From Thermoanaerobaculia bacterium (GTDB taxonomy: Bacteria > Acidobacteriota > Thermoanaerobaculia > UBA5066 > Gp7-AA6), in the NCBI GenBank assembly GCA_035500755.1, contig DATJXB010000067.1, forward strand, positions 36,023-100,022: a stretch of DNA of 64,000 nt, given 5' to 3'. This document shows, piece by piece, positions 6,450-47,018 of the stretch. Within the stretch, counting starts at the first letter, position 1. The number at the start of each line of letters is the position of its first letter. Both the position numbers and the translations under genes were made by a program. Below the pieces are notes generated by a model. That model worked only from the letters and a program-made list of their open reading frames with translations. It searched no databases and was not told where the DNA came from.

Positions 6450-6468
6450 CGGTTCCCTCCGTCGGCGT

Positions 6469-27657: not shown

Positions 27658-27806
27658 GTCCACCTCCTGGCCCGGATACCGCAGCGTCCTCCGGAAGGGC
27701 TCGCGAGCCGGACTCCGGAGCGGGGAAAGGGTATACCGGGCGCCCGTCCGTTGAACCCATGAGATTGGGGCCGAAAACGGGCCCGTCGGGTCCGATCCGG
27801 AGGGAC

Positions 27807-28148: not shown

Positions 28149-28193
28149 CATGTCCCGCCTCAAACGATAGCATTCCCGCGTTCGACCAACACC

Positions 28194-31699: not shown

Positions 31700-33853
31700 C
31701 TACCACCAGATCACGGTCTGGAGCCAGTGGCGCAGGACGCGCCACGAGCGCGACAGAAACGAGCGCCGGCCGAGCGAGATCTTGGCGTGCCCGGTCATGC
31801 CGGGCAGATAAGCGCCATCGGGGTTGTCGAAGGCGACGACCGCCACGAAACGCTCCGGCAGGTCGCGCGCCCGGAGCGTCTGCGTCGTGCCGTCGGCGGT
31901 GTGGGGCAGCTCGTGCGCCGCCGCGCCGACCTGGACGATGCGTCCTTCGAGGATCCGCGCGGGTCTCGCCCTCAGCTGCATCGCCACCGGTGCCCCCGGG
32001 TGCAGGTAGGCGAGCAGGCGCTCGGAGACGGGAATCTCGGCCTTCAGTCGGTCGCACTCGCCGACGCGCGCGATGACGGCACCGGCGGGAACGAAGCGAT
32101 CCGCCAGGTCCTGGGTTCGGCGGGTGAGCAGGCGCCCGGCGATGGGGCTCTCGACCGAGAGGCGCCGCAGGCGATCCTCCTCGCGGGCGAGCGCCATCGC
32201 GGCGGCGACCTCGCGGTTCTCGGCGTGGAAGACACCCTGGGCGTCGGCGGCGTCGCGCTGCCGGCTCGTGCGCTTGCGCGAGGCGTCGCGGACGGCCGAG
32301 GCGCCGGCGAATCCGGACGCGACGTCGGGGCTGTCGAGGACCGCGACGACGTCGCCCATCTTCACGCGGTCGCCTTCGCGGAAGCGCACGGCGACGATCG
32401 TGCCGTCGTCGGGCGCCTGGATCGCCGCCTCGGTCCAGGGTTGCAGCTCCGCCTCCGTCTCCAGTCTCCACGGCGCCCAGGGCACGATCAGTGCCAGCAG
32501 GAGGACGGCCCCTCCGGCGACGAGAGCCGTCCGGGATCGACGGGACATGAGCAACTCCTTCTTGTCGAGGTAGAGGAGGCGGAGGCCCTGGAGGAACGCG
32601 CGGACGTCCTTCCGGAAGAGGCGCAGCAGCGTCAGGATCAGGAGAACGAGGGCGACGTGGGGGAAGTATTTCGCGTAGAAGTTGTAGAAGAGCTTCGCGA
32701 GGAACACCATGATGAAGACGGTGAACCCGAGGGCGAGCGGGGCGTAGACGAGGAAGATCCGGCGCTTGCGCCGCGACAGGACCGGCACCTCGACGTTCAG
32801 GCGCAGGACGTGGCGCTTGAGCAGCGCGCCCAGGTACTCGATCGAGTCCTCGCGCAGCTCCGGGATCTCGAGGACGCTGCACAGGGCGTGGTAGCCGTCG
32901 ACCTTGCGGAGCGGGTTGATGTTGAAGAAGAGCGTGGAGATGCCCGTGAAGAGCATCAGCTTGTACGCGAGCTCGTGAAGCAGCGTGTCGGGGTACGACG
33001 CCACCCAGGCCGCGACCGCGAAGCTGCAGATGATCGCCTCGATGTACATGCCGGCCAGCACGACCCACAGCCGGTGCCACTTGTTCTGGAAGAGCAGCGC
33101 GTCGGTCGTGTCGCAGTAGAACGCCGGCATGAAGTAGAGCAGCGCGACGCCGATGTCGTGGACGTCGCCGCCGTAGAACTTGCAGACGTAGCCGTGCGCC
33201 ATCTCGTGGATCAGGCCGATGCCGCAGAGGATGACGAAGAACTGGACCGCGTCCCAGAACGGTTTGCGGAGAAACGCGTAGAGCTCGAGTGTCTGCTCCC
33301 AGATCGGGCCGAAGTGCCGGACGATGACGCCGGTCATCAGCGCGATCATCACGAGCGACACGGCGACGGTGGCGGGGCGCCAGATCCAGCGGACGTACTT
33401 CTGGGTCCGGTTCATGAACTCGTTCGGGTCGAAGACGTGGAAGGGGATGAGGAAGATGTCGAACCCTTCCGCCTTCTGCTCCGCCGTCCGGCGACGCGCG
33501 TCCTTGATCCAGTTCAGCTGCTCGAGGTTGCGCTCGACGGAGGACTTCTCGAGCAGGTCCATGTTCCGGAGAGACTCTTCGTACTCCGGGACGAGCGAGG
33601 CCTCGATCGGCTCGGTGAAGCGGGCCTGGTACGCGTCGTGGATCTCGGACAGAGTCCGCGTTCCGTCGAAGAGCTTCATGAGGTCCCAGGTGGCCTCGTC
33701 GAAGCTGTAGTACTGGGTCCGGTCGGGATTCTTGACGACCCAGTTGACCTCGCCCATCTGAACGACGCGGCGAATGACGAGGTTGCTCTTCAACCGCGGC
33801 CGGCCGGTCGAGCCCTTCTTGAACGCGGCCAGGGGAGCCGCGCCCGACTCCAT
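31700..33853 (-). CDS. Three-part fusion: N-terminal PqqD-like RiPP-recognition-element (RRE) domain, site-2-protease (peptidase M50) polytopic metalloprotease, C-terminal HlyD-like periplasmic domain
   Basis: C-terminal 717 aa of table ORF 31700-35161 (MESGAAP... start; MGEVNWVV at 33757 is the alternative). N-terminus ...YYSFDEATWDLMKLFDGTRTLSEIHDAYQARF...VPEYEESLRNMDLL fits the PqqD pattern (LNETGAxIWxLxDGxRTVxEI...). HEXXH (LIHEMAHGYV) inside a TM helix plus NINPLRKVDGYH (NxxPxxxxDG), the S2P signatures. C-terminal ...GTIVAVRFREGDRVKMGDVVAVLD...SPIAGRL... is HlyD/biotin-lipoyl-like. The upstream part of the table ORF overlaps the GAF gene out of frame. Confidence 0.75.
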   Translation of the reverse strand: MESGAAPLAAFKKGSTGRPRLKSNLVIRRVVQMGEVNWVVKNPDRTQYYSFDEATWDLMKLFDGTRTLSEIHDAYQARFTEPIEASLVPEYEESLRNMDLLEKSSVERNLEQLNWIKDARRRTAEQKAEGFDIFLIPFHVFDPNEFMNRTQKYVRWIWRPATVAVSLVMIALMTGVIVRHFGPIWEQTLELYAFLRKPFWDAVQFFVILCGIGLIHEMAHGYVCKFYGGDVHDIGVALLYFMPAFYCDTTDALLFQNKWHRLWVVLAGMYIEAIICSFAVAAWVASYPDTLLHELAYKLMLFTGISTLFFNINPLRKVDGYHALCSVLEIPELREDSIEYLGALLKRHVLRLNVEVPVLSRRKRRIFLVYAPLALGFTVFIMVFLAKLFYNFYAKYFPHVALVLLILTLLRLFRKDVRAFLQGLRLLYLDKKELLMSRRSRTALVAGGAVLLLALIVPWAPWRLETEAELQPWTEAAIQAPDDGTIVAVRFREGDRVKMGDVVAVLDSPDVASGFAGASAVRDASRKRTSRQRDAADAQGVFHAENREVAAAMALAREEDRLRRLSVESPIAGRLLTRRTQDLADRFVPAGAVIARVGECDRLKAEIPVSERLLAYLHPGAPVAMQLRARPARILEGRIVQVGAAAHELPHTADGTTQTLRARDLPERFVAVVAFDNPDGAYLPGMTGHAKISLGRRSFLSRSWRVLRHWLQTVIWW

Positions 33854-33894
33854 GGGGGCGGCGGAGGCGAGTCGGGCCGTCCGCGGCCTGGCGC

Positions 33895-36357
33895 TCACGG
33901 CAGCAGCGGCCAGAGCTTGAGCCAGAAGTAGCGCACGGGCTTGCGGAAGAGGGCGTAGCCGAGCGGTCGGGTCGCCGCCGCGACCTTTCCCGTGCCGAGC
34001 ATCCCGGGCTTCATCGCTTCGTCCGGGTTGTCGACGCGGGCCTCCGCGATGACGAAGCTCTCCTCGCCTTCCTGGCGGAGCTCCGCGCCGACGCGCTCGA
34101 CCCGGCCGCGGAACACGCGTGTCGGGTAAGGATTCATTTTCAGCGCGACCGGCTGACCCGCCTTGACCAGCGCGGCCTCGGCTTCGGGGACGGCGACTTC
34201 GGCGGTGACGCTGCCCAGATCGGCGACGATCGCGAGCTCCGCGCCGCGGGCGAGCGCCTGTCCGACGCGCTGCTCGACGTGCGGCGTGATCAGGACGCCG
34301 GCCGCCGGAGCGCGCAGAAGGGTCTTGGCGAGCTGCTCCTCGGCGAGCGCCCGCCGGGCCTTCTGCTCCTCGCACCGCGCGCGGGCCTCGAACATCGCCG
34401 CGGCGTCGCCCTCCTGGGTGTGCTGCGCGACGTCGCTCTCGGCGATCGCGAGGGCCGCCGAGGCCTCGGCCAGCGCGGCCCGGTAGGACTCGTCCTTCAG
34501 CGTCGCGACGACGTCGCCGGCGGCGACGCGGTCGCCCTCGCGGTGGAGGACCTCTTTGACGACGCCCTCGACGGCGGCCGTGATGGCGGCCCGGCGCGCC
34601 GGGAGCACGCGGACCGGCCCCTCCACGCGAATCTTCCACGGCACCGCGACAAGGGCGACCAGCACGATCCCCGCGCCGATCAGCCACGCCTGCCGCCGAC
34701 GGATCGGGATGTCGAGAAGCTTCCGGCGCTTCTCGAGCAGGGGGGCCAGGAACCCGGCGAGCGGGACCTGCTGATAGAGCTGGGCGTTGCGGACGGCGAC
34801 GGTGGCCTGGTTGACGAGGATCGCGAGCAGGTCGCGGTTCCCTTCGTCGAAGGCGAGGGGCTCGGCGCTCTCGAAGCCGAGCGCGCCGAGTTTTCCCTCC
34901 TCGTCCTTGAGGAGGACGCCGAAGAACGACTTGAGGCCCGTCTCGGCGAAGATTGCCCGGAACTTCTCGACCGTCTCCGGCCGCTCGGCCGTGATCTCGC
35001 CGTCCTCGGTCTGGGTGACGGCGACGTCGGTGCCGGAGAGGAAGACCCAGTTGAGCAGATCGTCCAGGCGCCGGACGTTCGGGTCCTTGCGGTCGATCTC
35101 CTTGGCCCCCGAGACGGCGCCGAGGCGGAACCGCCCCTTCTCGAAAATGCCGATGGCGCACCGGTCGTACGGGATCAGCGCGGACGTGGCGTTGACGACC
35201 GTGGCCATGACCTTGTCGAGGTCGAGGGTCGCCGTGATCTCGCGGCTGACGGCGAGCAGGGCGTCGAGCTCTTCGACCTTCTTCTCGGCCTCGTGCTGCC
35301 GCGCGGTGCGGAGCGCGCGCACCGCCTGGCGCGACAGGTCGGCGAGGAGCTCCTCGTCTTCCGCCGAGAACTCGGGGTGGCGGCCGCGCTTGTTGACGAG
35401 GACGAGCGCGCCCACGGGGATCTCGTCCTCCACGAGCGCGATGCCGAGCACCGAGCGCGCGAGGTAGCCGTCGTTCTCCGTGGCGACGGGATCACCTTCG
35501 GGGATCCGGTTGCGCCGCAGCGGCGCCTGGTCGGCCAGGAGGTCGCCGACGACCGGGCTCCCGACGGCCTCGGGCGCGTTCTCGACGTCGTAGTTCTCGT
35601 TGAGAGCGGTCGCGGCGAGCGTCACGTCCTCGCCGTCGAGCCGCCAGAGGGACGCGACCTCGGCGGTCAGGAAGTCGGCCGCTTTGCGCACGATGAGGTC
35701 CGAGAGCTCTTGCTCGTCGATGGTCGACCCGAACGCCTTCGAGAGGTCGTAAAGATTCGTCAGGCGCTCGATGGCGTGGAGCATGCCGACGGTCTTGCGC
35801 TCGGAGCGCAGGGCCCGGCCGAGGGCCGGCGCCGCCTGCTCGAGAAAGCGCTCGAGCCGCGCGAGCGCCTCGTCGGCGTCGGGCATCTCGGTGAAAAAGA
35901 GCGCCAGGAGTCCGACGACGAGGTTCTCGGCTTCGAGCGGCACCGCGAGGCACGCGCGGAAGCCGGGCGGCAGGCCGCGGACGAACGGGTCGCCGTCCGT
36001 GAGCTCCGCACCCGTCAGCACGATCGGCTGCCGGTCGCGGACGAGGTCGTGGACGAAACCGGTCTCTCGAGGCGCCGAACGCCTCAGGAATTTGTCGACG
36101 CCCTCGCCGGAGGCGCCGATGCAGAGAAAGAGCGGGTTGACGGTGTCGGGCGCCCAGAGCAGCGTCGCGTCGGCGCCGGCCATGACCGTGCTCCACCGGG
36201 CCGCCCAGCCGGAAGTCTGGGACAGGTTCTCGCAGAGGGCCAGCTCGGCGAGCGCCGTGACCTCCGCCTCCGCCGCCGAGGTGTCGGCCTCCTCGGCCGC
36301 GTCGCCGTCCTCCCCGTCGACCGGTTCGTCCTCCGGATCCTCGGGTTCGTCCGCCAA
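33895..36357 (-). CDS. Acidic N-terminal tail + three GAF domains + TM + C-terminal HlyD-like periplasmic domain
   Basis: 820 aa: MADEPEDPEDEPVDGEDGDAAEEADTSAAEAE (acidic), three GAF-like blocks (ends ...VGLLALFF, ...VGALVLVNKRG, ...LGALGFESAEP), a TM helix (WLIGAGIVLVALVAVPW) and an HlyD-like domain (...AAITAAVEGVVKEVLHREGDRVAAGDVVATL...LRAPAAGVL...). Confidence 0.8.
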   Translation of the reverse strand: MADEPEDPEDEPVDGEDGDAAEEADTSAAEAEVTALAELALCENLSQTSGWAARWSTVMAGADATLLWAPDTVNPLFLCIGASGEGVDKFLRRSAPRETGFVHDLVRDRQPIVLTGAELTDGDPFVRGLPPGFRACLAVPLEAENLVVGLLALFFTEMPDADEALARLERFLEQAAPALGRALRSERKTVGMLHAIERLTNLYDLSKAFGSTIDEQELSDLIVRKAADFLTAEVASLWRLDGEDVTLAATALNENYDVENAPEAVGSPVVGDLLADQAPLRRNRIPEGDPVATENDGYLARSVLGIALVEDEIPVGALVLVNKRGRHPEFSAEDEELLADLSRQAVRALRTARQHEAEKKVEELDALLAVSREITATLDLDKVMATVVNATSALIPYDRCAIGIFEKGRFRLGAVSGAKEIDRKDPNVRRLDDLLNWVFLSGTDVAVTQTEDGEITAERPETVEKFRAIFAETGLKSFFGVLLKDEEGKLGALGFESAEPLAFDEGNRDLLAILVNQATVAVRNAQLYQQVPLAGFLAPLLEKRRKLLDIPIRRRQAWLIGAGIVLVALVAVPWKIRVEGPVRVLPARRAAITAAVEGVVKEVLHREGDRVAAGDVVATLKDESYRAALAEASAALAIAESDVAQHTQEGDAAAMFEARARCEEQKARRALAEEQLAKTLLRAPAAGVLITPHVEQRVGQALARGAELAIVADLGSVTAEVAVPEAEAALVKAGQPVALKMNPYPTRVFRGRVERVGAELRQEGEESFVIAEARVDNPDEAMKPGMLGTGKVAAATRPLGYALFRKPVRYFWLKLWPLLP

Positions 36358-36397
36358 CTTGTCCTCGCCGAGCGTGGGCCGTGCCCGGTCGGCCGGC

Positions 36398-36733
36398 CTA
36401 GAAGCTGGAGACTGCCGCCTCGAGATCCTCGTGGATCTCGAAGACGGAGTCGAGCTTGGTCATCTGGAGGAGCTTGCGGACCTGCTGGCCGGCGTGGAGG
36501 AGCTTGGCCTGACCGCCCTCCTTCTGGGCGAGCGTGAGCGCCCGCACGAGCGCGCCGAGGCCGGAGCTGTCGAGGAAGCCGACCGCCTTCAAGTCGACGA
36601 GCAGGTTGGTCTTGCCCTCTTCGAGCAGACGCGTGACCGTCTTCTTGAACGTCGTCTCGGGCTCGCCGATGACGAGGTCTCCAACCACCGTCAGAATCGT
36701 GACGTCGCCGTCTTCGCTTGTCGTCAGGTCCAT
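36398..36733 (-). CDS. STAS-domain protein (anti-sigma-factor antagonist, SpoIIAA-like), first gene of the GAF-HlyD / M50-HlyD operon
   Basis: 111 aa from internal Met of table ORF 36398-38395: MDLTTSEDGDVTILTVVGDLVIGEPETTFKKTVTRLLEEGKTNLLVDLKAVGFLDSSGLGALV... Conserved DSSGLG phosphorylatable-serine region. Confidence 0.8.
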   Translation of the reverse strand: MDLTTSEDGDVTILTVVGDLVIGEPETTFKKTVTRLLEEGKTNLLVDLKAVGFLDSSGLGALVRALTLAQKEGGQAKLLHAGQQVRKLLQMTKLDSVFEIHEDLEAAVSSF

Positions 36734-36814: not shown

Positions 36815-37825
36815 ATGACGACTCTCGATCGCCGCCGGTTCGTCGCCCTGTCCGCCGGGTCGCTCGCCGCGCTGCGCTGGCGGCAACCCGCGCCCCCGGC
36901 GCCCACGCCCGCGGCGGAGGTCAAGACCGCCGGCATCCGGATGATCCCGGTCGAGGGCGGCAAGTACAAGGTCTGGACCAAGAAGCTCGGCGCCGGGAAG
37001 ATCAAGGTGCTCACGCTGCACGGCGGTCCGGGCGTCACGCACGAGTACTTCGAGTGCTTCGAGGACTTCCTGCCGCAGGCGGGGATCGAGTTCTACTACT
37101 ACGACCAGCTCGGCTCCTTCTACTCCGATCAGCCGGAGGACAAGAGCCTGTGGACGATCGAGCGCTTTCGCGACGAGGTCGAGCAGGTGCGCCTCGCCCT
37201 CGGGCTCGACCACTTCTTCCTCTACGGGCAGTCTTGGGGAAGCATGCTCGCGATCGACTACGCGCTGAAGTACCAGAGCCACCTGAAGGGCCTGGTCCTC
37301 TCGAGCATGACGGCCTCGATCGCTTCCTACGTCGAGTACGTCAACAAGCTGCGGGCGCGGCTGCCGCCCGAGGTTCTCGCGGTGCTCGTCAGGTACGAGA
37401 GCCAGGGCCAATTCGACGCGCCCGAGTACCAGGAAGTGATGTTCAAGGAGGTCTACGGCCGGCACGTCTGCCGGCTCGACCCCTGGCCGGACCCGGTCGC
37501 CCGGGCGTTCAAGCATTTGAATCCGCAGGTCTACAACACGATGCAGGGGCCGAACGAGTTCGTGGTGACGGGGACGTTCAAGGACTGGGACCGCTGGAAG
37601 GACCTGCCGAAGATCCAGACCCCGACGCTCCTGATCGGGGCGACCCACGACGAGATGAATCCCGAGGACATCGAGAAGATGGGCCGCCTGATCCCCGACT
37701 CGCGGGTCGCGATCTGCCCGAACGGCAGCCACCTGGCGATGTGGGACGACCAGGAGGCCTATTTTCGGGCCCTGATCCCCTTCCTGCTGGACGTCGAGGC
37801 GGGGCGCTTTCCCTCGCGGTCGTAA
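36815..37825 (+). CDS. Alpha/beta hydrolase (proline iminopeptidase family), TAT signal
   Basis: In-frame ATG at 36815 of table ORF 35771-37825: MTTLDRRRFVALSAGSLAAL... GQSWGS nucleophile elbow, HGGPG oxyanion motif. Confidence 0.8.
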   Translation: MTTLDRRRFVALSAGSLAALRWRQPAPPAPTPAAEVKTAGIRMIPVEGGKYKVWTKKLGAGKIKVLTLHGGPGVTHEYFECFEDFLPQAGIEFYYYDQLGSFYSDQPEDKSLWTIERFRDEVEQVRLALGLDHFFLYGQSWGSMLAIDYALKYQSHLKGLVLSSMTASIASYVEYVNKLRARLPPEVLAVLVRYESQGQFDAPEYQEVMFKEVYGRHVCRLDPWPDPVARAFKHLNPQVYNTMQGPNEFVVTGTFKDWDRWKDLPKIQTPTLLIGATHDEMNPEDIEKMGRLIPDSRVAICPNGSHLAMWDDQEAYFRALIPFLLDVEAGRFPSRS

Positions 37826-38087
37826 CCCTCGCCCGGGGGCGGCATCGAATCTCCGGCGGGATGAGATCCGGGACGTCCGGTTTCTCGTATTCGTGTCTGG
37901 AGGTCCTCGAAGGCCGCATGAATCTTGACGTCGCGGCGGGGAGGCGGAGGTAAGATTCGGCGCCAATGGCGCTCCCCGCGGGAGGAGCGCGAGGCAAACC
38001 GGTCGATCGCAGGCGTAGCTCGGCACGGCCATGTCGGCTGGACCGAATTCGATGACGCCCCGTCGGGGCAAGAAAAGGAGACTGGGG

Positions 38088-38495
38088 ATGAAGAAGGGTG
38101 ACCTGACGACGAAGGCGATCGGGTTGGCGATCGCCGGCGTGCTCGCGGGCTCGGGCCTGGCGAGCGCGATTCCTGCCAAGAACGCGAGCGCGAAGACGAC
38201 CGCCGGCGACGAGAAGGCCAAGGACACGAAGGCCGCGTCGGACAAGCACGTCTGCAAGGGCCAGAACTCCTGCAAGGGCAAGGGCGGCTGCAAGAGCGGC
38301 GACGCCGGCTGCGCGGGCAAGAATTCCTGCAAGGGCAAGGGTGGCTGCGCCTCGGCCGACATGAAGCACTCCTGCAAGGGCATGAACTCCTGCAAGGGTC
38401 ACGGCGGCTGCAAGACGGGCGACGGCGGCTGCGCGGGCAAGAACTCCTGCAAGGGCAAGGGCGGCTGCGCGGTCCCGGTCAAGAAGGCGGCGTAA
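38088..38495 (+). CDS. Bufferin-like RiPP precursor (BUF_6/12Cys type): Sec signal peptide + 12-Cys core of four CKGxNSCKGKGGC-type repeats
   Basis: ATG at 38088 with RBS AAAAGGAG: MKKGDLTTKAIGLAIAGVLAGSGLASAIPAKNASA... then ...HVCKGQNSCKGKGGCKSGDAGCAGKNSCKGKGGCASADMKHSCKGMNSCKGHGGCKTGDGGCAGKNSCKGKGGCAVPVKKAA. Lower GC than flanks. Immediately upstream of the MNIO + DUF2063 genes. Confidence 0.75.
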   Translation: MKKGDLTTKAIGLAIAGVLAGSGLASAIPAKNASAKTTAGDEKAKDTKAASDKHVCKGQNSCKGKGGCKSGDAGCAGKNSCKGKGGCASADMKHSCKGMNSCKGHGGCKTGDGGCAGKNSCKGKGGCAVPVKKAA

Positions 38496-38505
38496 GTCGG
38501 ATCCG

Positions 38506-38535
38506 TTCTGCCCGGGGGTCCTCGCGGCCCCCGGG
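38506..38535 (+). terminator. Hairpin / candidate partial terminator (attenuator) between precursor and MNIO genes
   Basis: cccggggg-tcctcgcg-gcccccggg (perfect 8-bp stem) followed by a T-rich tract catttctcttt, in the 60-nt precursor-MNIO gap. Confidence 0.4.
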
Positions 38536-38555
38536 CATTTCTCTTTGACGACTCC

Positions 38556-39449
38556 ATGACCCCGAACGCTGCCTCCCGCGTCCCCGCCGTCCGGAACCGC
38601 TGGGGCTTCGAAGACCTCGGCATCGGCGTGGGCCTCCGGACCATTCACTATCCGCACATCCTCGAGAACCGGCCCGACGTGGACTTCTTCGAGATCCTCT
38701 CGGAGAACTACATGGACACGGGCGGCCGCCCTCTCTGGGTGCTCGACCAGGTCGCGGAGCGCTACCCGATCGTGATGCACGGCGTCTCGATGAACATCGG
38801 CAGCGCCGATCCGCTCGACCGCGAGCACCTGGCGAAGTTGAAAGCCCTCGCCGGGCGCACCAGGGCGCGCTGGGTGTCGGACCATCTCTGCTGGACCGGC
38901 GTCGCCGGCCGCAACACGCACGACCTCCTGCCGATGCCGCTGACCGAAGAGGCGCTCGCGCATGTGGCCGCGCGGGTCCGCCAGGTCTCGGAGATTCTCG
39001 AGCGCCCGCTGATGCTCGAGAACGCTTCGACCTACGCCGAGTTCGCGGCCTCCTCCATGCCCGAGTGGGAGTTCTTCGGTCGCCTGATGGAGGCGGCCGA
39101 CTGCGGCATGCTCCTCGACGTCAACAACGTCTACGTCAGCTCCTTCAACCACGGCTTCGACCCCGAGCGGTACGTGGACGCGATCGACCCGGCGCGCGTG
39201 ACGCAGTACCACCTCGCCGGGCACACCAACAAGGGCACGCACATCATCGACACGCACAACGACCACGTGATCGACCGCGTCTGGGAGCTCTACGCGCGGT
39301 CCTCGGCGAGGACGGGCAACGTCTCGACGCTCCTCGAGTGGGATGCCGACATCCCGGCCTTCGACGTCGTCCACGCCGAGGCCCTGAAGGCCCGCGCGCA
39401 CCGGCGCGCGGAGAAGAGGGACAAGAAGGTTGCCGCCGCCGCCTCTTGA
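38556..39449 (+). CDS. MNIO enzyme (DUF692, multinuclear non-heme iron oxidative enzyme; MbnB/BufB family)
   Basis: 297 aa: ...LGIGVGLRTIHYPHILENRPDVDFFEILSENYMDTGGRPL...YPIVMHGVSMNIGSADPLD...WVSDHLCWTG...LENASTY... match DUF692 blocks. Confidence 0.85.
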   Translation: MTPNAASRVPAVRNRWGFEDLGIGVGLRTIHYPHILENRPDVDFFEILSENYMDTGGRPLWVLDQVAERYPIVMHGVSMNIGSADPLDREHLAKLKALAGRTRARWVSDHLCWTGVAGRNTHDLLPMPLTEEALAHVAARVRQVSEILERPLMLENASTYAEFAASSMPEWEFFGRLMEAADCGMLLDVNNVYVSSFNHGFDPERYVDAIDPARVTQYHLAGHTNKGTHIIDTHNDHVIDRVWELYARSSARTGNVSTLLEWDADIPAFDVVHAEALKARAHRRAEKRDKKVAAAAS

Positions 39450-40278
39450 TCTCGGCCTGCCGCACTTGCAGCGGTGGATGCAGGCGGTGATCGAGCAGCC
39501 GGGCACCGTCGACGACGCGGTCGTCTCGCCCGCGGCGCGCCGCGAGCTCGACCCCGTCCGGATCGGCCGCGTGGTTCTCCCGTCGAAGACGCTCACGTCG
39601 GTCGAGCGCGTCGGCGTGTACCAGGGCATGTATCTCCTCCGGATGATCGAAGCGCTCGAGGGCGACTATCCGGCCGTCGCGCACTTCCTCGGCGACGAGG
39701 AGTTCGCCGACCTCGTGACCCGCTACGTCGCGGCGCACCCGTCGACGAGCTACACGTTCAACCGCCTCGGAAAGCGATTCCCCGAGTTCATCCAGGAAGC
39801 GCGCGGCGTCCGGAAGAAGGGCTTCGTCGCCGATCTCGCGCGCCTGGAGCTTTCCGTGACGGAGGTCTTCGACGCGCCCGAGTCGCCGGCGTGGCCGGAC
39901 GACGCGGTGGCCCGCCTCCCGAAGGAGGCCTGGGCGTCGGCCGTGCTCAAGCCGATCGCCGCGTTCCGGCTCGGGAGCTACGCCCATCCCGTCAACGCCT
40001 ACCTGCAGTCGGTCAAGGAGGAGAACCACGACCATCCGGGCGTGGGCCGCCAGGCGACCCGCGTCGTCGTGTGGCGCAAACGCTACGAAGTGTGGCGCCT
40101 CGAGCTCTCGAAGCCGGCCTTCGATTTTCTCGCCTCGCTCGCCAAGGGGCGTCCGTTCGGCAAGGCCGTCGTCGCCGCCGCCCGCGGCCTGCAGGGGAAC
40201 CCCGGCGAGCAGCTCTTCCGCTGGCTGCGCGACTGGGTCGCCGAGGGGATGTTCGAAGGCGTCCAGACGGCGGGCTGA
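39430..40278 (+). CDS. DUF2063-family protein (MNIO partner, BufC/MbnC-like)
   Basis: 282 aa, 20-nt overlap with the MNIO gene (translational coupling). N-terminal ...LPHLQRWMQAVIEQPG... conserved start of DUF2063. Confidence 0.8.
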   Translation: MPPPPLDLGLPHLQRWMQAVIEQPGTVDDAVVSPAARRELDPVRIGRVVLPSKTLTSVERVGVYQGMYLLRMIEALEGDYPAVAHFLGDEEFADLVTRYVAAHPSTSYTFNRLGKRFPEFIQEARGVRKKGFVADLARLELSVTEVFDAPESPAWPDDAVARLPKEAWASAVLKPIAAFRLGSYAHPVNAYLQSVKEENHDHPGVGRQATRVVVWRKRYEVWRLELSKPAFDFLASLAKGRPFGKAVVAAARGLQGNPGEQLFRWLRDWVAEGMFEGVQTAG

Positions 40279-40312
40279 GCCCAAGCGCGCGATCACGATA
40301 GGCTCTGCCGCG

Positions 40313-42241
40313 ATGCGCGAGTGGCTCGAGGCCGACGGCCTCGGCGGGTTCGCGTCCGGGACCGCCGACGGCCTCCGGACCCGGCGCTACCACGCGCTGC
40401 TGCTGACCGCGAAGAATCCGCCGACCGGTCGGGTCGTGCTCGTCAGCGGCTTCGACGCCTTCGTCGAGACGGCGTCGGGGCGCTTCGCGATCTCGTCGCA
40501 GCGCTACGCGCCCGACGTCGTTTCTCCCGACGGCGCCGGGCGGGCCGAGTCGTTCGACCAGGAGCCCTGGCCGCGCTGGGTCTTCGCGCTGCCGGACGGC
40601 ACCCGCGTGGCGCAGGAGATCTTCGTCCCGAAGGACGCGTCGGCGGTCGCGGTCTCCTGGAAGCTGCTGACCGGAGCCGGTCCCGTGCGCCTCGAGGTGC
40701 GCCCGTTCTTCGCGGGGCGCGACTACCACGCGCTGCACCACGAGAACCCCGCCTTCCGCTTCGACGCCGCGGAGGGCGACGCCGGCCTCGTCCGGTTCCG
40801 GCCCTATCCGGACATGCCGTCGGTGTCCGTCCGCTCGAACGGCGCCTTCGCGCCGGCGCGCGACTGGTATCGCCGTTTCGCGTACGCCGAGGAAGAAGCG
40901 CGCGGACTCGACTTCGAGGAGGACCTCGCGTCCCCGGCGCTCTTCCGCTTCGACCTCGCGGCCGGCGAGGCGGTCTGGCTCGCCGCGGCGGAGGGCCACG
41001 AGGCGGCTCTCGGGTCCGGCGGCGCCGCGGCGGCGCTGGAAGCCCTGCGCCTCGCCGAGCGCAGCCGGCGGGCCCGTTTCGTCGACCGCCTGGACCGGTC
41101 GGCCGACGCCTACCTCGTCCGCCGGGGGAGCGGCCGCACGATCGTCGCCGGCTACCCCTGGTTCACCGACTGGGGGCGCGACACGTTCATCGCGCTGCGA
41201 GGCCTGTGCCTGGCGACGGGCCGTCTTGCGGAAGCCGAAGGCATCCTCGTCGAGTGGGCGGGCGCGGTTTCGGAGGGCATGCTGCCGAACTTTTTTCCGG
41301 ACGCGGACGCCGAGCCCGAGTTCAACGCGGTCGACGCGTCGCTCTGGTACGTGATCGCGGTCTATGAGTACCTGGAAGCGATGGCCTCGACGGGCCGCGT
41401 CGCCGCGCGGGCGTCGGTGGCGAAGCTCCAGGCGGCGGTCGAAGCGATCCTGACGGGCTACGCGAACGGCACCCGCTTCGGGATCCGTGCCGACGGCGAC
41501 GGTCTTCTCGCGGCCGGGAAGCGCGGCGTCCAGCTGACGTGGATGGATGCGAAAGTCGGCGACTGGGTCGTCACGCCGCGGATCGGCAAGCCCGTCGAGG
41601 TGCAGGCCCTGTGGCTGAACGCGCTGTGGATCGCGACCGCGTTCTCGGAGCAGTGGCGGCCGCTCCACGACCGCGCGTTCGCGGCGTTTGGGGCCCGGTT
41701 CTGGAACGAGGCCGGCGGCTACCTCCACGACGTCGTCGACGTCGACCACGACCCGGGAACCGCCGACCCGACGTTTCGCCCCAACCAGATCTTCGCGGTG
41801 GGCGGCCTGCCGTTCCCGGTGCTCGAAGGGGAGCGCGCGCGGCGCGTCGTCGACGCGGTCGAGGCCAGGCTGTCGACGCCGCTCGGCCTGCGGTCGCTCG
41901 ACCCGGGCGACCCCGCCTACACCGGACGCTACGAGGGCGGGCCTCGGCAGCGGGACGGCGCCTACCACCAGGGCACCGTGTGGCCGTTCCTGGCGGGAGC
42001 GTTCGTGGACGCCTGGGTCCGTGTGCGCGGTGAAACGGAGGCGGCGAAGGACGAGGCGCGGCGCCGCTTCCTCGAGCCCTTGCGCGCGCACCTCGGCGAA
42101 GCCGGCCTCGGGCACGTCTCGGAGATCGCCGACGGGGACGCCCCGCACACGCCGCGCGGGTGTCCGTTCCAGGCCTGGTCGGTGGGAGAGCTGATCCGGA
42201 TCGAGAAGGTGATTCTGGGACGGCCCTCGACACGCTGCTAG
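40313..42241 (+). CDS. Amylo-alpha-1,6-glucosidase / glycogen-debranching-enzyme-family glycoside hydrolase (GDE_C)
   Basis: 642 aa with ...GYPWFTDWGRDTFIALRGL... and the six-hairpin (alpha/alpha)6 catalytic-domain pattern ...LTWMDAKVGDWVVTPRIGKPVEVQALW... Confidence 0.8.
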   Translation: MREWLEADGLGGFASGTADGLRTRRYHALLLTAKNPPTGRVVLVSGFDAFVETASGRFAISSQRYAPDVVSPDGAGRAESFDQEPWPRWVFALPDGTRVAQEIFVPKDASAVAVSWKLLTGAGPVRLEVRPFFAGRDYHALHHENPAFRFDAAEGDAGLVRFRPYPDMPSVSVRSNGAFAPARDWYRRFAYAEEEARGLDFEEDLASPALFRFDLAAGEAVWLAAAEGHEAALGSGGAAAALEALRLAERSRRARFVDRLDRSADAYLVRRGSGRTIVAGYPWFTDWGRDTFIALRGLCLATGRLAEAEGILVEWAGAVSEGMLPNFFPDADAEPEFNAVDASLWYVIAVYEYLEAMASTGRVAARASVAKLQAAVEAILTGYANGTRFGIRADGDGLLAAGKRGVQLTWMDAKVGDWVVTPRIGKPVEVQALWLNALWIATAFSEQWRPLHDRAFAAFGARFWNEAGGYLHDVVDVDHDPGTADPTFRPNQIFAVGGLPFPVLEGERARRVVDAVEARLSTPLGLRSLDPGDPAYTGRYEGGPRQRDGAYHQGTVWPFLAGAFVDAWVRVRGETEAAKDEARRRFLEPLRAHLGEAGLGHVSEIADGDAPHTPRGCPFQAWSVGELIRIEKVILGRPSTRC

Positions 42242-42253
42242 GATTCGCGCCGC

Positions 42254-43156
42254 TTGATCAGACGACTTGCGGTCTGGGCCGGCCTCCTCCTGGCCACGGG
42301 ACTGGGCGCGGCCTCCGCGCAGCAGCTCGAGCCGCGCGCGTATGTGCCCGTCCCCGTCGACGTCAATGTCGCCGGAATGCCGTTCGTCTACCAGACCGGC
42401 GCGGTCGTGACGGATCCGTCGCTCCCGTTCTCGAACATCGACGCCCACGTCGAGACGCTCGCCGCGTTCTACGACCGGAGCTTCGCGTTCTTCGGCCACT
42501 CGGCCACGGCGCTCGTCTCCGTGCCCTGGGTCTGGGCGCAGGTGTCGGGGGAGGTGTTCGAGCAGGCCCGGCGGGTGACGCGGTCCGGTCTGGCCGACAT
42601 GTCCATGCGCTTCAGCGCGAACATCCTCGGTTCGCCGGCCCTCACGCCGCAGGAGTTCGCGAAGACGCCGATCAAGCCGACCCTGGGGGCGAGCCTGACC
42701 GTCACGGCGCCGACCGGCCAGTACGATGGCACGAAACTGATCAACATCGGCACGAACCGTTGGGGCTTCAAGCCGGAGGTGGGGCTTTCGGTGCCGACGG
42801 GTCCCTGGACGTTCGAGGCCTACGCCGGCGCCTGGTTCTACACCCCGAATGACGACTTCTTCGGCGGGCGTCGCCGCACCCAGGATCCGATTCCCGAGTT
42901 TCAGGGCCACGTCGGCTATACGTTCAAGCCGGGGCTCTGGCTATCGATCGACGGGACCTGGTACTCGGGCGGCCAGACCACGACGGCGGGCGTGTTGGAC
43001 GACGACCGGCTGAAGAACACGCGCGTCGGGGCGACGTTCGCCGTGCCGCTCGGGCACGGCAACGACATCAAGCTCGCCGGGGCCCGGGGCGCGACGACTC
43101 GCTTCGGACAGAACTTCACGACCGTCGGCCTGACGTTTCAGCACCACTGGTTCTGA
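42254..43156 (+). CDS. Outer-membrane beta-barrel protein ('transporter'/MetA-pathway-like family), signal peptide
   Basis: 300 aa: MIRRLAVWAGLLLATGLGAASAQQ..., alternating hydrophobic beta-strand pattern, C-terminal ...TFQHHWF aromatic terminus typical of OM beta-barrels. Confidence 0.6.
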   Translation: MIRRLAVWAGLLLATGLGAASAQQLEPRAYVPVPVDVNVAGMPFVYQTGAVVTDPSLPFSNIDAHVETLAAFYDRSFAFFGHSATALVSVPWVWAQVSGEVFEQARRVTRSGLADMSMRFSANILGSPALTPQEFAKTPIKPTLGASLTVTAPTGQYDGTKLINIGTNRWGFKPEVGLSVPTGPWTFEAYAGAWFYTPNDDFFGGRRRTQDPIPEFQGHVGYTFKPGLWLSIDGTWYSGGQTTTAGVLDDDRLKNTRVGATFAVPLGHGNDIKLAGARGATTRFGQNFTTVGLTFQHHWF

Positions 43157-43204
43157 CGGGGCGACGCCGCGCCGCGGTATAGGCTGAAACGGGAAGGAGC
43201 CGAC

Positions 43205-43672
43205 ATGCCGTTCATGGACCGGGCCTCGCGGCTGCGCCGTCTCGTGCACGCGGTGTCGAACCGGCTGCGGTGGCTGCCGCCGACCGTCGCGCGCGTCACG
43301 ATCGGCTGGATCTTCCTGCAGTCGGGCTGGGGCAAGCTCACGAACCTGGCAAAGGTCGTCGGGTTCTTCACCGAGCTGGGGATTCCGGCCCCGGAGATCC
43401 AGGCGCGCCTGGCGGCCGCATCGGAGTTTCTCTGTGGCCTCCTGATCCTGGTCGGCCTCGGCACGCGCGTCGCGACGCTGCCGCTCCTCGGCGTGATGGC
43501 CGTCGCGATCCTCACGGCCCGCCGGGGCGACATCCACGAGCTTTCGGACCTCTTCGCGATGGCCGAGTACCTCTACATCGTGATCCTGCTCTGGCTCGGA
43601 GCCTACGGCGCGGGCCCGATTTCTCTCGATGCCTTCTTCGCCAGGCGCCTCGAGCGGGAAGAGAAGGGGTAG
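43205..43672 (+). CDS. DoxX-family membrane protein
   Basis: 155 aa, four TM: ...RVTIGWIFLQSGWGKLTNL...ASEFLCGLLILVGLGTRVATLPLLGVMAVAI... Confidence 0.8.
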   Translation: MPFMDRASRLRRLVHAVSNRLRWLPPTVARVTIGWIFLQSGWGKLTNLAKVVGFFTELGIPAPEIQARLAAASEFLCGLLILVGLGTRVATLPLLGVMAVAILTARRGDIHELSDLFAMAEYLYIVILLWLGAYGAGPISLDAFFARRLEREEKG

Positions 43673-44038
43673 CGGCCGACTCGGCCTCACGAACTTTCCG
43701 AGAATTTTCGTCCGAAGCCGCCCCGCTCCGGGCCGGCGTTCGGCTTTTTGGGCGTTCCCCGGCTTTCCCGGTTCAAAACTCCGGAACCGCGATCCGTGCG
43801 GGTCCGGCCGCGTTTCGCGAATCCCGTCCCGCGAGCGGCTCGTCATCGGCGACGCGGGGCTCGTCCGCCGTTCCGGTTTCGTCCCGCCGCTTCGGTGAAC
43901 CGACCGCGCGTCCACGATTCTGAATGGGGCGACGCGCGGCCTCGTGCGGCGACGTCCGCGGTCCCGCGCGGCGCACGCTTCGTCCGCTCGCGCGCGGCGC
44001 TCGGCCCCGAGCGGCCGCGCTCCACGGTTTCGGACGCG

Positions 44039-44054
44039 TGGCACCCGCGTTGCT
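44039..44054 (+). promoter_or_regulatory. Sigma-54 (-24/-12) promoter upstream of the TonB-dependent-receptor-like gene
   Basis: TGGCAC-ccgcg-TTGCT, perfect match to TGGCAC-N5-TTGCW. About 50 nt upstream of AGGAGG RBS and the ATG at 44106. Confidence 0.65.
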
Positions 44055-44105
44055 CTCCGCATCCGTTGCGCCGACGCCTCGCCGGCGTAAGGAGGAATGA
44101 CGAGA

Positions 44106-47018
44106 ATGAACTGTCACCGACCGACGCGCCGGAAAGCGGCCTGGCTCTGGGCGGCGGCCCTCACCGCCGCGCTGGCCCTCGCGCCGCTCGTCTCCGCGCA
44201 ACAGCTCACCGGCAACATCTTCGGCAAAGTCGTCGACGAGCAGGGCGGCAAGCTGCCGGGCGTGACGGTCACGCTCTCCGGCATCGGCGCCGCGAAGACG
44301 CAGACGACCGACGCCCGCGGCGAGTTCCGCTTCCCGAACCTCGCTCCCGGCGTCTACACGCTGACCTACGAGCTCCAGGCATTCACGAGGGTCACCAACA
44401 GCGACGTGAAGGTCTCCGTCGGCCAGAACACGGAGACGAACGCGACGCTGAAGATCTCGAGCGTCGAGGCGACGGTCGTCGTCGAAGGCGCGCCGGCCCT
44501 GCTCGACACGCGGCAGGTCCAGACGGGAGCCGTCGTCGATCAGACCGAGCTGACGCAGATCCCGACGGCCCGCGACCCGTGGGTCATCCTGTCGACCGTA
44601 CCCGGCGTGCAGCTCGACCGCGTCAACGTCGGCGGCAACGAGAGCGGCCAGCAGTCGACGTACGTCGGCAAGGGCGCCGACTCGAGTCAGAACACGTGGA
44701 ACGTGGACGGCGTCACGATCACCGACATGGGCGCTCTCGGTTCGTCGCCCAACTACTACGACTTCGATTCCTTCCAGGAGATGCAGGCATCGACGGGCGG
44801 CAGCGACGTGACGGCCGCTTCGCCGGGCGTGCAGCTGAACCTCGTGACCAAGCGCGGGACCAACGACGTCCACGGCTCGGCCCGCTACTTCCTCGCCAAC
44901 AGCGACCTGCAGTGGAACAACGTCACGCCGGAGGACCAGGCCGAAGGCGTCGTCAACGGCGGCAACCGGATCAACGAGGTGCAGGACTACGGCATCGAGA
45001 TCGGCGGCCCGCTGTGGCGGGACAAGATCTGGGCGTGGGGCGCCTACGGCCGCAACCAGATCAACCTCTTCAACGCCCAGGGCAACCCCGACAACACGAC
45101 GCTGATCGACTACAACGCCAAGATCAACTGGCAGTTGTTCGACTCGACCTCGCTCGCGGGCACCTTCTCCAACGGCAACAAGGAGAAGTTCGGCCGCAAC
45201 GTGTCTTTCTCGCGGCCGCCGCCCGCGTCGTGGGACCAGACCGGCCCGACGACGATCTGGCGCGGCGAGATCTCGCAGATCTTCTCGTCGTCGCTGTTCT
45301 TCACGGCGTCCTACTCGTCCGTCTCGGCCGGGTTCTCGCTGACGCCGCAGGGCGGCACGGACGTGAACGATCTCTACATCAACGAGCAGGGGCAGTTCAT
45401 CGGCAGCTACCTCTACGCCGACACGGTCCGCCCGCAGAAGCAGGCGACCGCGAGCGGGTCCTACTTCTTCAACACGGGCTCGGTCGGCAACGAGCTCAAG
45501 TACGGGTTCAACTACCGGACGACCGACGTCGACTCCGTCTCCTCGTGGCCCGGCAACGGCAACTACGGGGACCTCGCGGACTTCAACTCGCCGGTCGCCA
45601 TCATGACCCGCAACGCGGTCCTGAACACGCGGCTGCGGTACTACAGCGGGTATCTCTCCGACACGCTGACGTTCGGGAACCTCACGATCAACGCCGGCGT
45701 GCGGTACGACAACCAACAGGGACACAACCTCGCCTCGACGACGCCGGCGAACCCGGTCATCCCGGATCTGCTGCCCGGCATCACGACCACCGACCAGCCG
45801 GCGCCGTTCACCTGGGAGAACGTCGTCCCGCGCATCGGCGCGACGTACGCGCTCGGCCAGGACAAGAAGACGCTCCTGCGGGCGAGCTATTCGCAGTACG
45901 CGGACCAGCTCGGGGCGAACGCCGTGGCGTTCACCAACGCCGGGGCGCTCGCCGGGCTCTACTACTACTGGAACGACGCCAACGGGGACCACGTCATCAC
46001 GCGCAACGAGCTGAACCTGAACACCCTGGTCTCGCACTACGGCGTCGACCCCGCCAACCCGGGTTCTTCCACGTCCCCCAACGTCGTCGACCCCAACTTC
46101 AAGGCCGGGAAGACGACCGAAGTCATCGCGGGCATCGAGCACGAGCTGCTCGACGGTCTGGTGGTCGGCGTGGCCTACACGTACCGCAAGTACGACGGCG
46201 CGCTTTGGCCCCATCGCACGGGGCTGACCGAGAACGACTACGAGGTCGGCGGCGAGCTGACCGGCACGCTCTTCAACGGAGTTCCCTTCCAGGTTCCGTA
46301 CTACCAGCTCAAGCCGGGCGTGGACGTTCCGGCGGGTCTGACCCTCTCGAACCGCCCCGACTGGAACACGACGTACAACGGCGTCGACCTGACCTTCCAG
46401 AAGCGGCTCTCCGACAAATGGCTGGTGCGCGGCGGCGCGACGTACCAGACGTGGAATCAGCACGGCGGCGCCGGGTCCTGCTACGACCCGACGAGCGACC
46501 GCGGCGGCAACAACGAGCTCTGGCCCGGCACGCCGATCGGCATCCAGACCGGCTCCACCTGCGCGGGCAACGACATTGCCGCGCTTCCCGCCGGCGCCGC
46601 CAGCGGCGCGCGCAACGAGGTCTTCCTGAACGCGCGCTGGCTCTTCAACGTCAGCGGGCTCTACCAGCTCCCGGCGGGCTTCGCCGTCGCCGCCAACTTC
46701 TTCGGCCGCGAAGGCTACCCGTACGTCAACTACTACCGGTTCGACCCGGGCGACGGTCTCGGCCCGCGCGACAACATCCTCACGCAGCTCTCGACGTACC
46801 GCTATGGCAACGTTTACGAGCTGGATCTGCGCCTGGAGAAAGTCATCACGGTCAAGCCGCTCGAGATCACGATCGCCGCGGACGTCTTCAACGCGGCGAA
46901 CTCGGGCACCGTGCTCCAGCGCAACGCGCGCGTCGACCTGGGCCCCGGCGTCTACAACCAGATCATCGAGATGCAGAGCCCGCGCGTCGTGCGCTTCGGC
47001 GCGCGGCTGTCCTTCTGA
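44106..47018 (+). CDS. Outer-membrane TonB-dependent-receptor-like protein with N-terminal carboxypeptidase-regulatory-like domain (Acidobacteria-type)
   Basis: ATG at 44106 (9-nt spacing from AGGAGG): MNCHRPTRRKAAWLWAAALTAALALAPLVSAQQLTGNIFGKVVDEQGGKLPGVTVTLSG...GEFRFPNLAPGVYTL..., then plug-like ...PGVQLDRVNVGG... and a long beta-barrel ending ...VRFGARLSF. The table start at 44097 has no RBS spacing. Confidence 0.8.
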   Translation: MNCHRPTRRKAAWLWAAALTAALALAPLVSAQQLTGNIFGKVVDEQGGKLPGVTVTLSGIGAAKTQTTDARGEFRFPNLAPGVYTLTYELQAFTRVTNSDVKVSVGQNTETNATLKISSVEATVVVEGAPALLDTRQVQTGAVVDQTELTQIPTARDPWVILSTVPGVQLDRVNVGGNESGQQSTYVGKGADSSQNTWNVDGVTITDMGALGSSPNYYDFDSFQEMQASTGGSDVTAASPGVQLNLVTKRGTNDVHGSARYFLANSDLQWNNVTPEDQAEGVVNGGNRINEVQDYGIEIGGPLWRDKIWAWGAYGRNQINLFNAQGNPDNTTLIDYNAKINWQLFDSTSLAGTFSNGNKEKFGRNVSFSRPPPASWDQTGPTTIWRGEISQIFSSSLFFTASYSSVSAGFSLTPQGGTDVNDLYINEQGQFIGSYLYADTVRPQKQATASGSYFFNTGSVGNELKYGFNYRTTDVDSVSSWPGNGNYGDLADFNSPVAIMTRNAVLNTRLRYYSGYLSDTLTFGNLTINAGVRYDNQQGHNLASTTPANPVIPDLLPGITTTDQPAPFTWENVVPRIGATYALGQDKKTLLRASYSQYADQLGANAVAFTNAGALAGLYYYWNDANGDHVITRNELNLNTLVSHYGVDPANPGSSTSPNVVDPNFKAGKTTEVIAGIEHELLDGLVVGVAYTYRKYDGALWPHRTGLTENDYEVGGELTGTLFNGVPFQVPYYQLKPGVDVPAGLTLSNRPDWNTTYNGVDLTFQKRLSDKWLVRGGATYQTWNQHGGAGSCYDPTSDRGGNNELWPGTPIGIQTGSTCAGNDIAALPAGAASGARNEVFLNARWLFNVSGLYQLPAGFAVAANFFGREGYPYVNYYRFDPGDGLGPRDNILTQLSTYRYGNVYELDLRLEKVITVKPLEITIAADVFNAANSGTVLQRNARVDLGPGVYNQIIEMQSPRVVRFGARLSF

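Follow-up and report, generated by a model that had tools for sequence, protein, structure and literature searches.

A probable bufferin-2 (bufABC) cluster with a two-domain, twelve-cysteine precursor in an uncultured soil Acidobacteriota

In this work we describe a cluster of three genes at positions 38088-40278 of a 64,000-nucleotide window (the whole stretch of DNA analysed), which lies on a contig deposited as part of a Thermoanaerobaculia (Acidobacteriota) metagenome-assembled genome. The genes encode a 135-aa cysteine-rich precursor, a BufB-class enzyme of the MNIO (DUF692) family and its DUF2063 partner, and we conclude with good confidence that they form a genuine bufABC locus, that is, a bufferin-2 cluster (BufA2-type, or 'Cys-Lys' captophorin), of an uncultured soil Acidobacteriota. 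An earlier reading of the sequence alone (hereafter, the original prediction) had recognised here the logic of a bufferin-type peptide that is made on the ribosome and modified after translation (RiPP), and the combination of a cysteine-rich precursor carrying a Sec signal with an MNIO of the BufB class and its DUF2063 partner bears this out. The peptide had also been thought not yet examined in this lineage, which holds for experimental work but not for genome surveys, since MNIO/Buf2 clusters of Acidobacteriota are catalogued (PMC11626156; supplement of PMC12452194). The locus is thus a routine member of the 12-Cys Buf2 subclass.

BufA consists of a signal peptide (residues 1-27, nt 38088-38168), a Lys/Ala-rich linker and two six-cysteine domains. 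By its sequence features the N-terminus is of Sec type, with a positively charged n-region (MKKGDLTTK), hydrophobic residues from 10 to 24 and the cleavage motif ASA/IP, and the relatives share this N-terminus. The cysteines, at residues 56, 62, 68, 75, 81, 87, 96, 102, 108, 115, 121 and 127, are arranged as 2 x (C-x5-C-x5-C-x6-C-x5-C-x5-C), which gives four C-x5-C-x5-C units reading, in order, CKGQNSCKGKGGC, CAGKNSCKGKGGC, CKGMNSCKGHGGC and again CAGKNSCKGKGGC. The Sec-signal precursor with twelve cysteines and four units proposed originally is therefore present where it had been placed, with the specification that the units make up two 40-aa domains, which share 31/40 identical residues. The sole NCBIfam match of the precursor was BufA2 (NF050166 Cu_RiPP_BufA2, 'BufA2 family periplasmic bufferin-type metallophore'), found with E = 5e-14 and 52.3 bits in two stretches, each covering one domain. 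Its homologues number at least 6485, the best ones mostly 115-170 aa long, and in 61 of them, once aligned, all 12 cysteines proved invariant or at least 90% conserved. The model match, the number of homologues and this conservation together indicate that the cysteine pattern is not due to chance. Searches with other precursor families gave no competing assignment: no match to Pfam DUF2282 appeared at E <= 0.01, and a weak DUF7640 match reached 17.1 bits against a cut-off of 28.1.

The second gene, bufB, encodes an MNIO. BufB passes the equivalog model NF050167 (MNIO_BufB) with 357.4 bits against a cut-off of 310, matches Pfam MbnB_TglH_ChrH (PF05114) with 360.9 bits and finds 3BWW as its best PDB match (E = 3.7e-51), while it stays under the cut-offs of the other MNIO models, namely HvfB (260 against 360), MbnB (52.5 against 325), ApyH and ChrH. 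Across 81 homologues there is no substitution at H75, H110, E155, D188, N191, H219, D232, H234, E261 or D263; the H/H/E/D/N/H/D/H/E spacing of the first nine, together with D263, fits what we take to be the iron ligands and the catalytic Asp of MbnB, the alignment to 3BWW having been used as well.

The third gene, bufC, matches PF09836 (DUF2063) with 66.9 bits against a cut-off of 27.2, so that the MNIO and the DUF2063 partner named in the original prediction are both confirmed by Pfam. The HvfC model NF050145 aligns with residues 58-270 of BufC over profile positions 23-225 of 237 (E = 1.4e-15), and its 57.8 bits against an equivalog cut-off of 142 are as expected for a non-Hvf member. Searches of BufC against the PDB, with the single sequence or a 26-sequence profile, returned nothing significant, and 3DEE was not reached. 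Gene callers place the bufC start at ATG 39478, 16 codons inside the frame that begins with TTG. The 16 residues upstream of this ATG are conserved as protein in the relatives and one of them (L010) has Leu at the Met codon; therefore TTG at 39430 is the likely start, which leaves a 20-nt overlap with bufB. In L086, too, an overlap was called by the gene caller; the one in the window would couple translation of the two genes. The overlapping genes of the original prediction are thus found for bufB and bufC (39430-39449), but not for bufA and bufB, as these are separated by 60 nt in which a hairpin lies.

Related loci bear L numbers in this text. Among the genomes of the collection, the 80 loci whose MNIOs are most similar come mostly from Thermoanaerobaculia, Vicinamibacteria and Bryobacteraceae, the farther ones being from Planctomycetota and Polyangiaceae. 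In nearly all of them a cysteine-rich precursor-like open reading frame (ORF) adjoins the MNIO, and the gene order bufA-bufB-bufC recurs across Acidobacteriota, Planctomycetota and Polyangiaceae. As outcomes that would speak against it, the original prediction had named a precursor outside the bufferin profiles and an MNIO from clades lacking precursor genes; what we observed instead is a precursor matching BufA2 and an MNIO that passes the BufB cut-off and whose neighbours carry precursors. These data also bear on the notion that the cysteine-rich protein stays unmodified, as a secreted metallothionein-like or disulfide-rich protein beside an incidental or inactive MNIO. We hold this to be extremely improbable: nothing specific speaks for it, apart from a low-confidence structure model that leaves the fold open, whereas the order precursor-MNIO-DUF2063 is met in different phyla among the 80 related loci, all candidate iron ligands of BufB are intact, and bufB and bufC appear to be translationally coupled.

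Two further features of these loci were recorded. L004 (L004:3265-4570) and L024 (L024:4347-5238) hold a second, divergent MNIO + DUF2063 pair about 3-4 kb upstream of bufA, with ~49% and 35-38% identity; the window has no such pair. In addition, the precursors beside the MNIOs of L046, L047, L049, L054, L059, L062-L064, L069, L072, L074 and others, from Planctomycetota and some Acidobacteriota, make up a distinct subtype: they have ~9-10 Cys, and a conserved stretch (…VPL.D..W.KAR..FE..M…GPAP) extends their C-terminus. Some loci of this type are ordered bufB-DoxX-bufA-bufC.

The two domains of BufA correspond to an in-frame tandem duplication in the DNA. Specifically, Tandem Repeats Finder (TRF) reported a period of 120, 1.9 copies, 88% matches and a score of 370, and a direct-repeat search gave 89% identity. 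Among the precursors beside the 80 most similar MNIOs, 30/71 have 12 cysteines in four triads, as do 11 of the 12 closest relatives; the two-domain form is the norm in Thermoanaerobaculia- and Vicinamibacteria-like soil Acidobacteriota. Twelve cysteines, as a duplicated 6-Cys domain, were reported for ~10% of Buf2 peptides (PMC12452194), and the family name BUF_6/12Cys reflects members carrying six or twelve conserved cysteines. Therefore, what had been taken for an expanded, quadruple-repeat variant is the published 12-Cys subclass, usual among relatives within the phylum. The same duplicated architecture was modelled for the 12-Cys Buf2 protein WP_077285100 of Cognaticolwellia aestuarii (PMC12452194); the window differs from it in phylum, and its 120-bp repeat is 88-89% identical in DNA and varies in copy number among close relatives.

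This variation is most evident in the closest relative, L001, whose BufB is 94% identical and whose precursor (L001:3235-3498) is shorter, in frame, by exactly one 120-bp unit, so that domains 1 and 2 are merged into one 6-Cys chimera. An assembly collapse is an unlikely origin of this allele, given that independent full-length proteins with six (P0021, P0024, P0028, P0082, P0120) or nine cysteines (P0019) exist in the same clade, although some of the repeat-number variants could be assembly errors. The distant loci L019, L021 and L041 carry 16-21 Cys. As judged from these sequences, modules seem to have been gained and lost through recombination between repeats. Whether the 120-bp repeats, and the half-units of 57-60 bp, act as a recombination-driven 'dosage dial' is a more speculative matter; we regard it as possible, yet doubtful.

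Bufferins were defined by Leprevost et al. (PMC11626156), and the closest characterised counterpart is bufferin 2 of Caulobacter vibrioides (BufA2/BufB2/BufC2, CCNA_02999-03001). Both systems have a Sec precursor with Cys-Lys motifs and a 6-Cys domain, a BufB-class MNIO, a DUF2063 partner and a three-gene layout with no adjacent DoxX gene. In the Caulobacter peptide, which has a Sec signal and six cysteines, CysI and CysVI form a disulfide and each of the four central cysteines loses 4.03 Da to become a 5-thiooxazole; the buf2 operon is bufABC, with no doxX, BufB and BufC suffice for the modification, which needs neither DoxX nor the signal peptide, and bufferin clusters are copper-induced and protect against copper (PMC11626156). 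More generally, 5-thiooxazole formation and Cu binding are shared by every MNIO-PME1 system characterised (PMC13097082). The chemistry and the periplasmic copper buffering predicted for the window peptide follow this example. Unlike its Caulobacter counterpart, the window precursor has two tandem 6-Cys domains (the published minority form) and a long Lys/Ala-rich linker, and scores under the NCBIfam cut-off; the MNIO has Ala, not Asp, at the candidate Lys-contact site, and the host is an acidobacterium with no SigF/NrsF regulon evident.

By analogy, the following pathway may be proposed. BufA would be translated with its Sec signal peptide, and BufB, an MNIO that depends on iron and O2, would act in the cytoplasm together with BufC, a DUF2063 and presumably RRE-type partner, to oxidise the inner four cysteines of each domain to 5-thiooxazoles, ~8 heterocycles in total at -4 Da each. 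After Sec export and removal of the signal peptide behind ASA27, the outer cysteine pair of each domain would form a disulfide, and the resulting two-domain, Lys-rich and basic periplasmic protein (~10.4 kDa, predicted isoelectric point ~9.5) would sequester excess Cu(I)/Cu(II), with a capacity of perhaps up to ~4 ions per peptide.

Other MNIO systems were compared in the same way. Bufferin 1 (buf1ABCD / gig operons) has the same enzyme pair and, as expected of the window peptide, Sec export, thiooxazoles and copper protection, but its precursor has four cysteines and a DUF2282 fold, with DoxX and SigF/NrsF usually present, and BufA has no DUF2282 match. Oxazolin (HvfABC-HvfX), fontiphorin and gonophorin, all 5-thiooxazole copper binders, likewise combine an MNIO and a DUF2063 partner with a Cys-repeat Sec precursor, often together with DoxX (HvfX). 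Their motif is EGKCG ('Lys-Cys'), whereas that motif is absent from BufA, in which the cysteines of the C-x5-C-x5-C units are followed by Lys or Ala (C-K/C-A); an oxazolin-like (Hvf) identity was rejected on this ground and on the HvfB score, and the window peptide falls in the Cys-Lys group.

The likeness to methanobactin suggested in the original prediction does not hold beyond the general principle that an MNIO acts on cysteines of a ribosomal peptide to yield a copper ligand. The MbnABC system has an MbnC partner, oxazolone-thioamide chemistry and a leader-core precursor with no Sec signal, and it serves to acquire copper; in the window the partner is a DUF2063 protein, the precursor motifs differ, and the MbnB score given above is far too low. 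It is also highly improbable that the cysteines are turned into oxazolone/thioamide pairs in place of 5-thiooxazoles. Such pairs were at first assigned to oxazolin (PMC11252979), and the two products are equal in mass, but the assignment was revised to 5-thiooxazole, which all tested MNIO-PME1 products carry (PMC13097082), and the low MbnB score likewise speaks against such pairs here.

Several observations weigh against the bufferin-2 assignment or its copper role. First, the 52.3 bits of BufA lie below the curated BufA2 cut-off of 60. On the same model a 12-Cys Vicinamibacteria precursor (L030) reached 64.5 bits, and 6-Cys precursors beside related MNIOs (three from Acidobacteriota, one from Chitinophagaceae) scored 33-47; the latter values suggest that the model under-scores relatives from outside Pseudomonadota. 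Of the profile searches proposed with the original prediction, those for DUF692 and DUF2063 were positive, the one for DUF2282 was negative, and BufA2 gave a match below its threshold. Second, an AlphaFold2 model of BufA built on the 61-sequence alignment was uninformative (mean pLDDT 47.6, pTM 0.17). Third, a published specificity site, Phe250 in FonB, is Asp in 'Cys-Lys' MNIOs, where it is said to contact the substrate Lys (PMC13097082); the candidate equivalent in BufB is Ala264, followed by Asp265, and among 81 relatives the site is A in 52, E in 20, G in 4 and D in 4, and never Phe. We consider this a minor point. Fourth, the papers searched held no characterised Acidobacteriota bufferin. 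In addition, MNIOs require O2, and the host is uncultured.

Finally, no copper sensor, copper pump, other copper-homeostasis gene or SigF/NrsF was found among the window ORFs scanned, and the copper role assigned to the peptide is therefore drawn from homology. The absence of a copper-specific gene from these ORFs would also fit an alternative in which the modified peptide serves another ligand or role (Hg, Au, Ag, Zn, Cd, or redox/sulfur stress), and MerC-Buf2 fusions, induction by gold and possible roles with other metals appear in the literature (PMC12452194; PMC13097082). Nevertheless, every characterised member, that is Buf1, Buf2, oxazolin, fontiphorin, gonophorin and bulbicupramide, binds Cu and is induced by copper or stress (PMC11626156, PMC13097082, PMC12538549), so that we judge a non-copper function unlikely. 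In conclusion, a bufferin-2 peptide that would buffer copper in the periplasm remains the reading that we favour.

The non-coding parts of the bufABC cluster are conserved as well (Table 1). A strong GC-rich hairpin follows bufA at the same place in 19/19 relatives, with differing stem sequences and often a T-run, and in L001 the T-G wobble of the stem is replaced by C-G. As far as sequence can tell, it is likely a partial terminator or attenuator, which would probably end most transcripts and so provide the precursor in excess of the enzymes. A high precursor:enzyme ratio set in this way is common in RiPP operons. Upstream of bufA, a conserved leader region of 262 nt (37826-38087) contains a 'GCCATGTCGGCTG' block that forms a small hairpin, and a CCCC-N3-5-GGGG hairpin that recurs, in the same position, in almost every one of the 13 aligned sequences. 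TAAGAT, invariant as TAnnAT, may be a promoter element; TTGACG (37925-37930) lies 20 nt upstream of it, at an atypical spacing, and a sigma-70 consensus scan of 37700-44200 called no promoter, TAAGAT included. When the conserved leader block was compared by eye with extracytoplasmic function (ECF)-type and sigma-54-type spacing, neither fitted. In an Rfam scan of 37700-38700, neither the leader nor the hairpin matched a known RNA family. The post-bufA hairpin, the conserved leader and the repeat-number polymorphism are additions not mentioned in the bufferin literature searched.

Downstream of bufC lie a GDE-family gene, an outer-membrane protein (OMP) gene and a DoxX gene. The last, placed by the original prediction behind a glycoside hydrolase and an outer-membrane gene, was found exactly there, 2.9 kb from bufC. 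It had led to the idea of a rearranged cluster, but bufABC with no DoxX is a standard Buf2 layout, as in Caulobacter, and in the relatives DoxX stands beside a TonB-receptor-like gene at a variable distance, so that no rearrangement need be assumed. From bufC to DoxX the genes are co-directional with gaps of 12-48 nt, which makes their co-transcription possible in the window. The GDE neighbour in particular is probably co-transcribed here; it stands outside the bufferin system and looks like an unrelated cytoplasmic enzyme.

In the relatives, two conserved units can be distinguished. The first comprises the minus-strand STAS / GAF-HlyD / HExxH-protease-HlyD genes, a proline-iminopeptidase-type hydrolase and bufABC, after which GDE often comes; the second is made of (OMP)-DoxX, a TonB-receptor-like protein and a glycosyltransferase. 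The two are adjacent in the window and in L001. Specifically, GDE lies within ~130 nt of bufC in the window, L001, L003, L005 and L086, whereas in L002, L006 (~1 kb, with no OMP) and L009 insertions of genes or other sequence lie between the two. The block OMP-DoxX-TonB-receptor-like gene is found in L001, L083, L084 and L085, and DoxX in general sits just upstream of the TonB-receptor-like gene, usually after the MetA-type OMP and 0.1-8 kb from bufC-GDE. Between GDE and DoxX, L086 has ~2 kb with a sulfatase and two small ORFs, while 4-8 kb of unrelated genes separate the two units in L002, L003 and L085. In several close relatives neither GDE nor DoxX occurs within 8 kb downstream.

These arrangements bear on a broader proposal, namely one six-gene operon, bufA-bufB-bufC-GDE-OMP-DoxX, in which DoxX would be a displaced bufD and the OMP and/or the glycosidase would add a function. 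In the window all six genes are on the plus strand with gaps of 12-60 nt, the stretch from bufC to DoxX has no strong terminator, and a weak site resembling a terminator lies behind DoxX, at 43728-43743. The window DoxX scores 69.5 bits on HvfX, the model for RiPP-associated DoxX (NF050144, cut-off 80), within the 63-84 bits of buf-adjacent DoxX proteins, against 30 for E. coli YqjF, although this comparison rests on that single negative control. Both the window and seven relatives (L001, L002, L003, L005, L006, L085, L086) have DoxX at most ~10 kb downstream from bufABC. This synteny comes from one clade and is therefore not independent evidence. Moreover, the genes that part bufC-GDE from OMP-DoxX over 4-8 kb are variable (sulfatase, GH63-like hydrolase, DUF1304) and, in L002 and L085, include an opposite-strand sigma-54 activator, so that co-transcription is not conserved; several close relatives lack both GDE and DoxX in the range searched; the GDE protein is of the glycogen-debranching type with no signal peptide; and in Caulobacter, whose buf2 has no DoxX, DoxX is dispensable for both bufferin modification and copper protection (PMC11626156). 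Altogether, a functional six-gene system is unlikely, and we rate the whole proposal as rather improbable. That the MetA-type OMP and DoxX functionally extend the bufferin system of this clade is less likely than the dosage dial discussed above, and the odds of an ancestral association between DoxX and bufABC are roughly even. The three-gene bufABC cluster thus remains the unit that we assign.

As a separate observation on these downstream genes, the window and L001 (L001:7283-8704) are only 67% identical in the OMP and 75% in DoxX, while the flanking GDE and TonB-receptor-like proteins are 92% and 97% identical. This suggests that the OMP-DoxX pair may have been exchanged as a unit, in a local mosaic.

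Other features of the window were noted in passing. The divergent minus-strand block at 31700-36733 is syntenic with bufABC in at least ten relatives, and its STAS, GAF-HlyD and protease-HlyD proteins may represent a separate peptide-processing or export system. A formate dehydrogenase alpha subunit (7360-10425, minus strand) is split by an in-frame TGA at 9850-9852, in the context SQARV*HGPTV, which is very likely a selenocysteine codon; genes for an iron-sulfur subunit, cytochrome b and FdhE follow at 4958-7350. A DndB-like (DNA-sulfur-modification-associated) ORF at 26530-28173 on the minus strand, beside a LemA-family gene (25878-26471), is unrelated to bufABC.

Table 1. Coordinates of the bufABC cluster, its non-coding elements and neighbouring genes in the window.
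Feature	Position	Strand	Evidence or remark
Candidate -10 box, invariant TAnnAT (TAAGAT)	37951..37956	+	T, A, A, T invariant in 13 aligned relatives
Leader hairpin CGGCC-ATGTC-GGCTG	38026..38040	+	RNAalifold, 5 pairs; at 2 of them 4 sequences show compensatory AU-to-GC changes
Hairpin GCCCC-GTC-GGGGC just upstream of the ribosome-binding site	38057..38069	+	CCCC-N3-5-GGGG type in relatives
Shine-Dalgarno AAAGGAG of bufA	38074..38080	+	Invariant in 13 relatives, 6-8 nt before ATG
bufA, Buf2-type (BUF_6/12Cys, 'Cys-Lys') precursor, 135 aa	38088..38495	+	BufA2 hidden Markov model, 12 conserved Cys
120-bp in-frame tandem duplication (domain 1 38244-38363, domain 2 38364-38483)	38244..38470	+	TRF, direct repeat, L001
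Terminator-like hairpin, 12-bp stem with 10 GC pairs, then TTTCTCTTT	38509..38547	+	14 nt after bufA stop
bufB, MNIO (DUF692) bufferin maturase, 297 aa	38556..39449	+	NF050167, PF05114
bufC, DUF2063/HvfC-type partner (PME1), 282 aa from TTG	39430..40278	+	PF09836, NF050145
GDE-family amylo-alpha-1,6-glucosidase, 642 aa, no signal peptide	40313..42241	+	GDE_N, GDE_C
MetA-pathway-type OMP with signal peptide, 300 aa	42254..43156	+	PF13557, 72.5 bits; conserved as a pair with DoxX
DoxX membrane protein of 155 aa with a BufD/HvfX-like score	43205..43672	+	PF07681, 78.3 bits
STAS anti-sigma antagonist	36398-36733	-	
Triple-GAF protein fused to HlyD/RND-adaptor domain	33895-36357	-	
HExxH intramembrane metalloprotease fused to HlyD-type adaptor	31700-33853	-	Daptide-type NF041824, 177.8 bits, below cut-off 300

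In public annotation, BufB (HTR02425.1) is labelled 'DUF692 domain-containing protein' only, the labels met in a look-up of the cluster are this one and 'DNA-binding domain-containing protein', and the nearest homologues of the precursor are hypothetical proteins; the exact BufB protein is also found on ENA contig ERZ27256576:k141_1839839. The bufABC locus raises no new question on MNIO chemistry or copper homeostasis, and the practical gain is one of annotation, in that the genes of the window can now be named bufA2, bufB and bufC. Should the repeats of bufA indeed work as a dosage dial, populations would tune their copper-buffering capacity per peptide through the number of thiooxazole modules, in a manner resembling the amplification of metallothionein genes.

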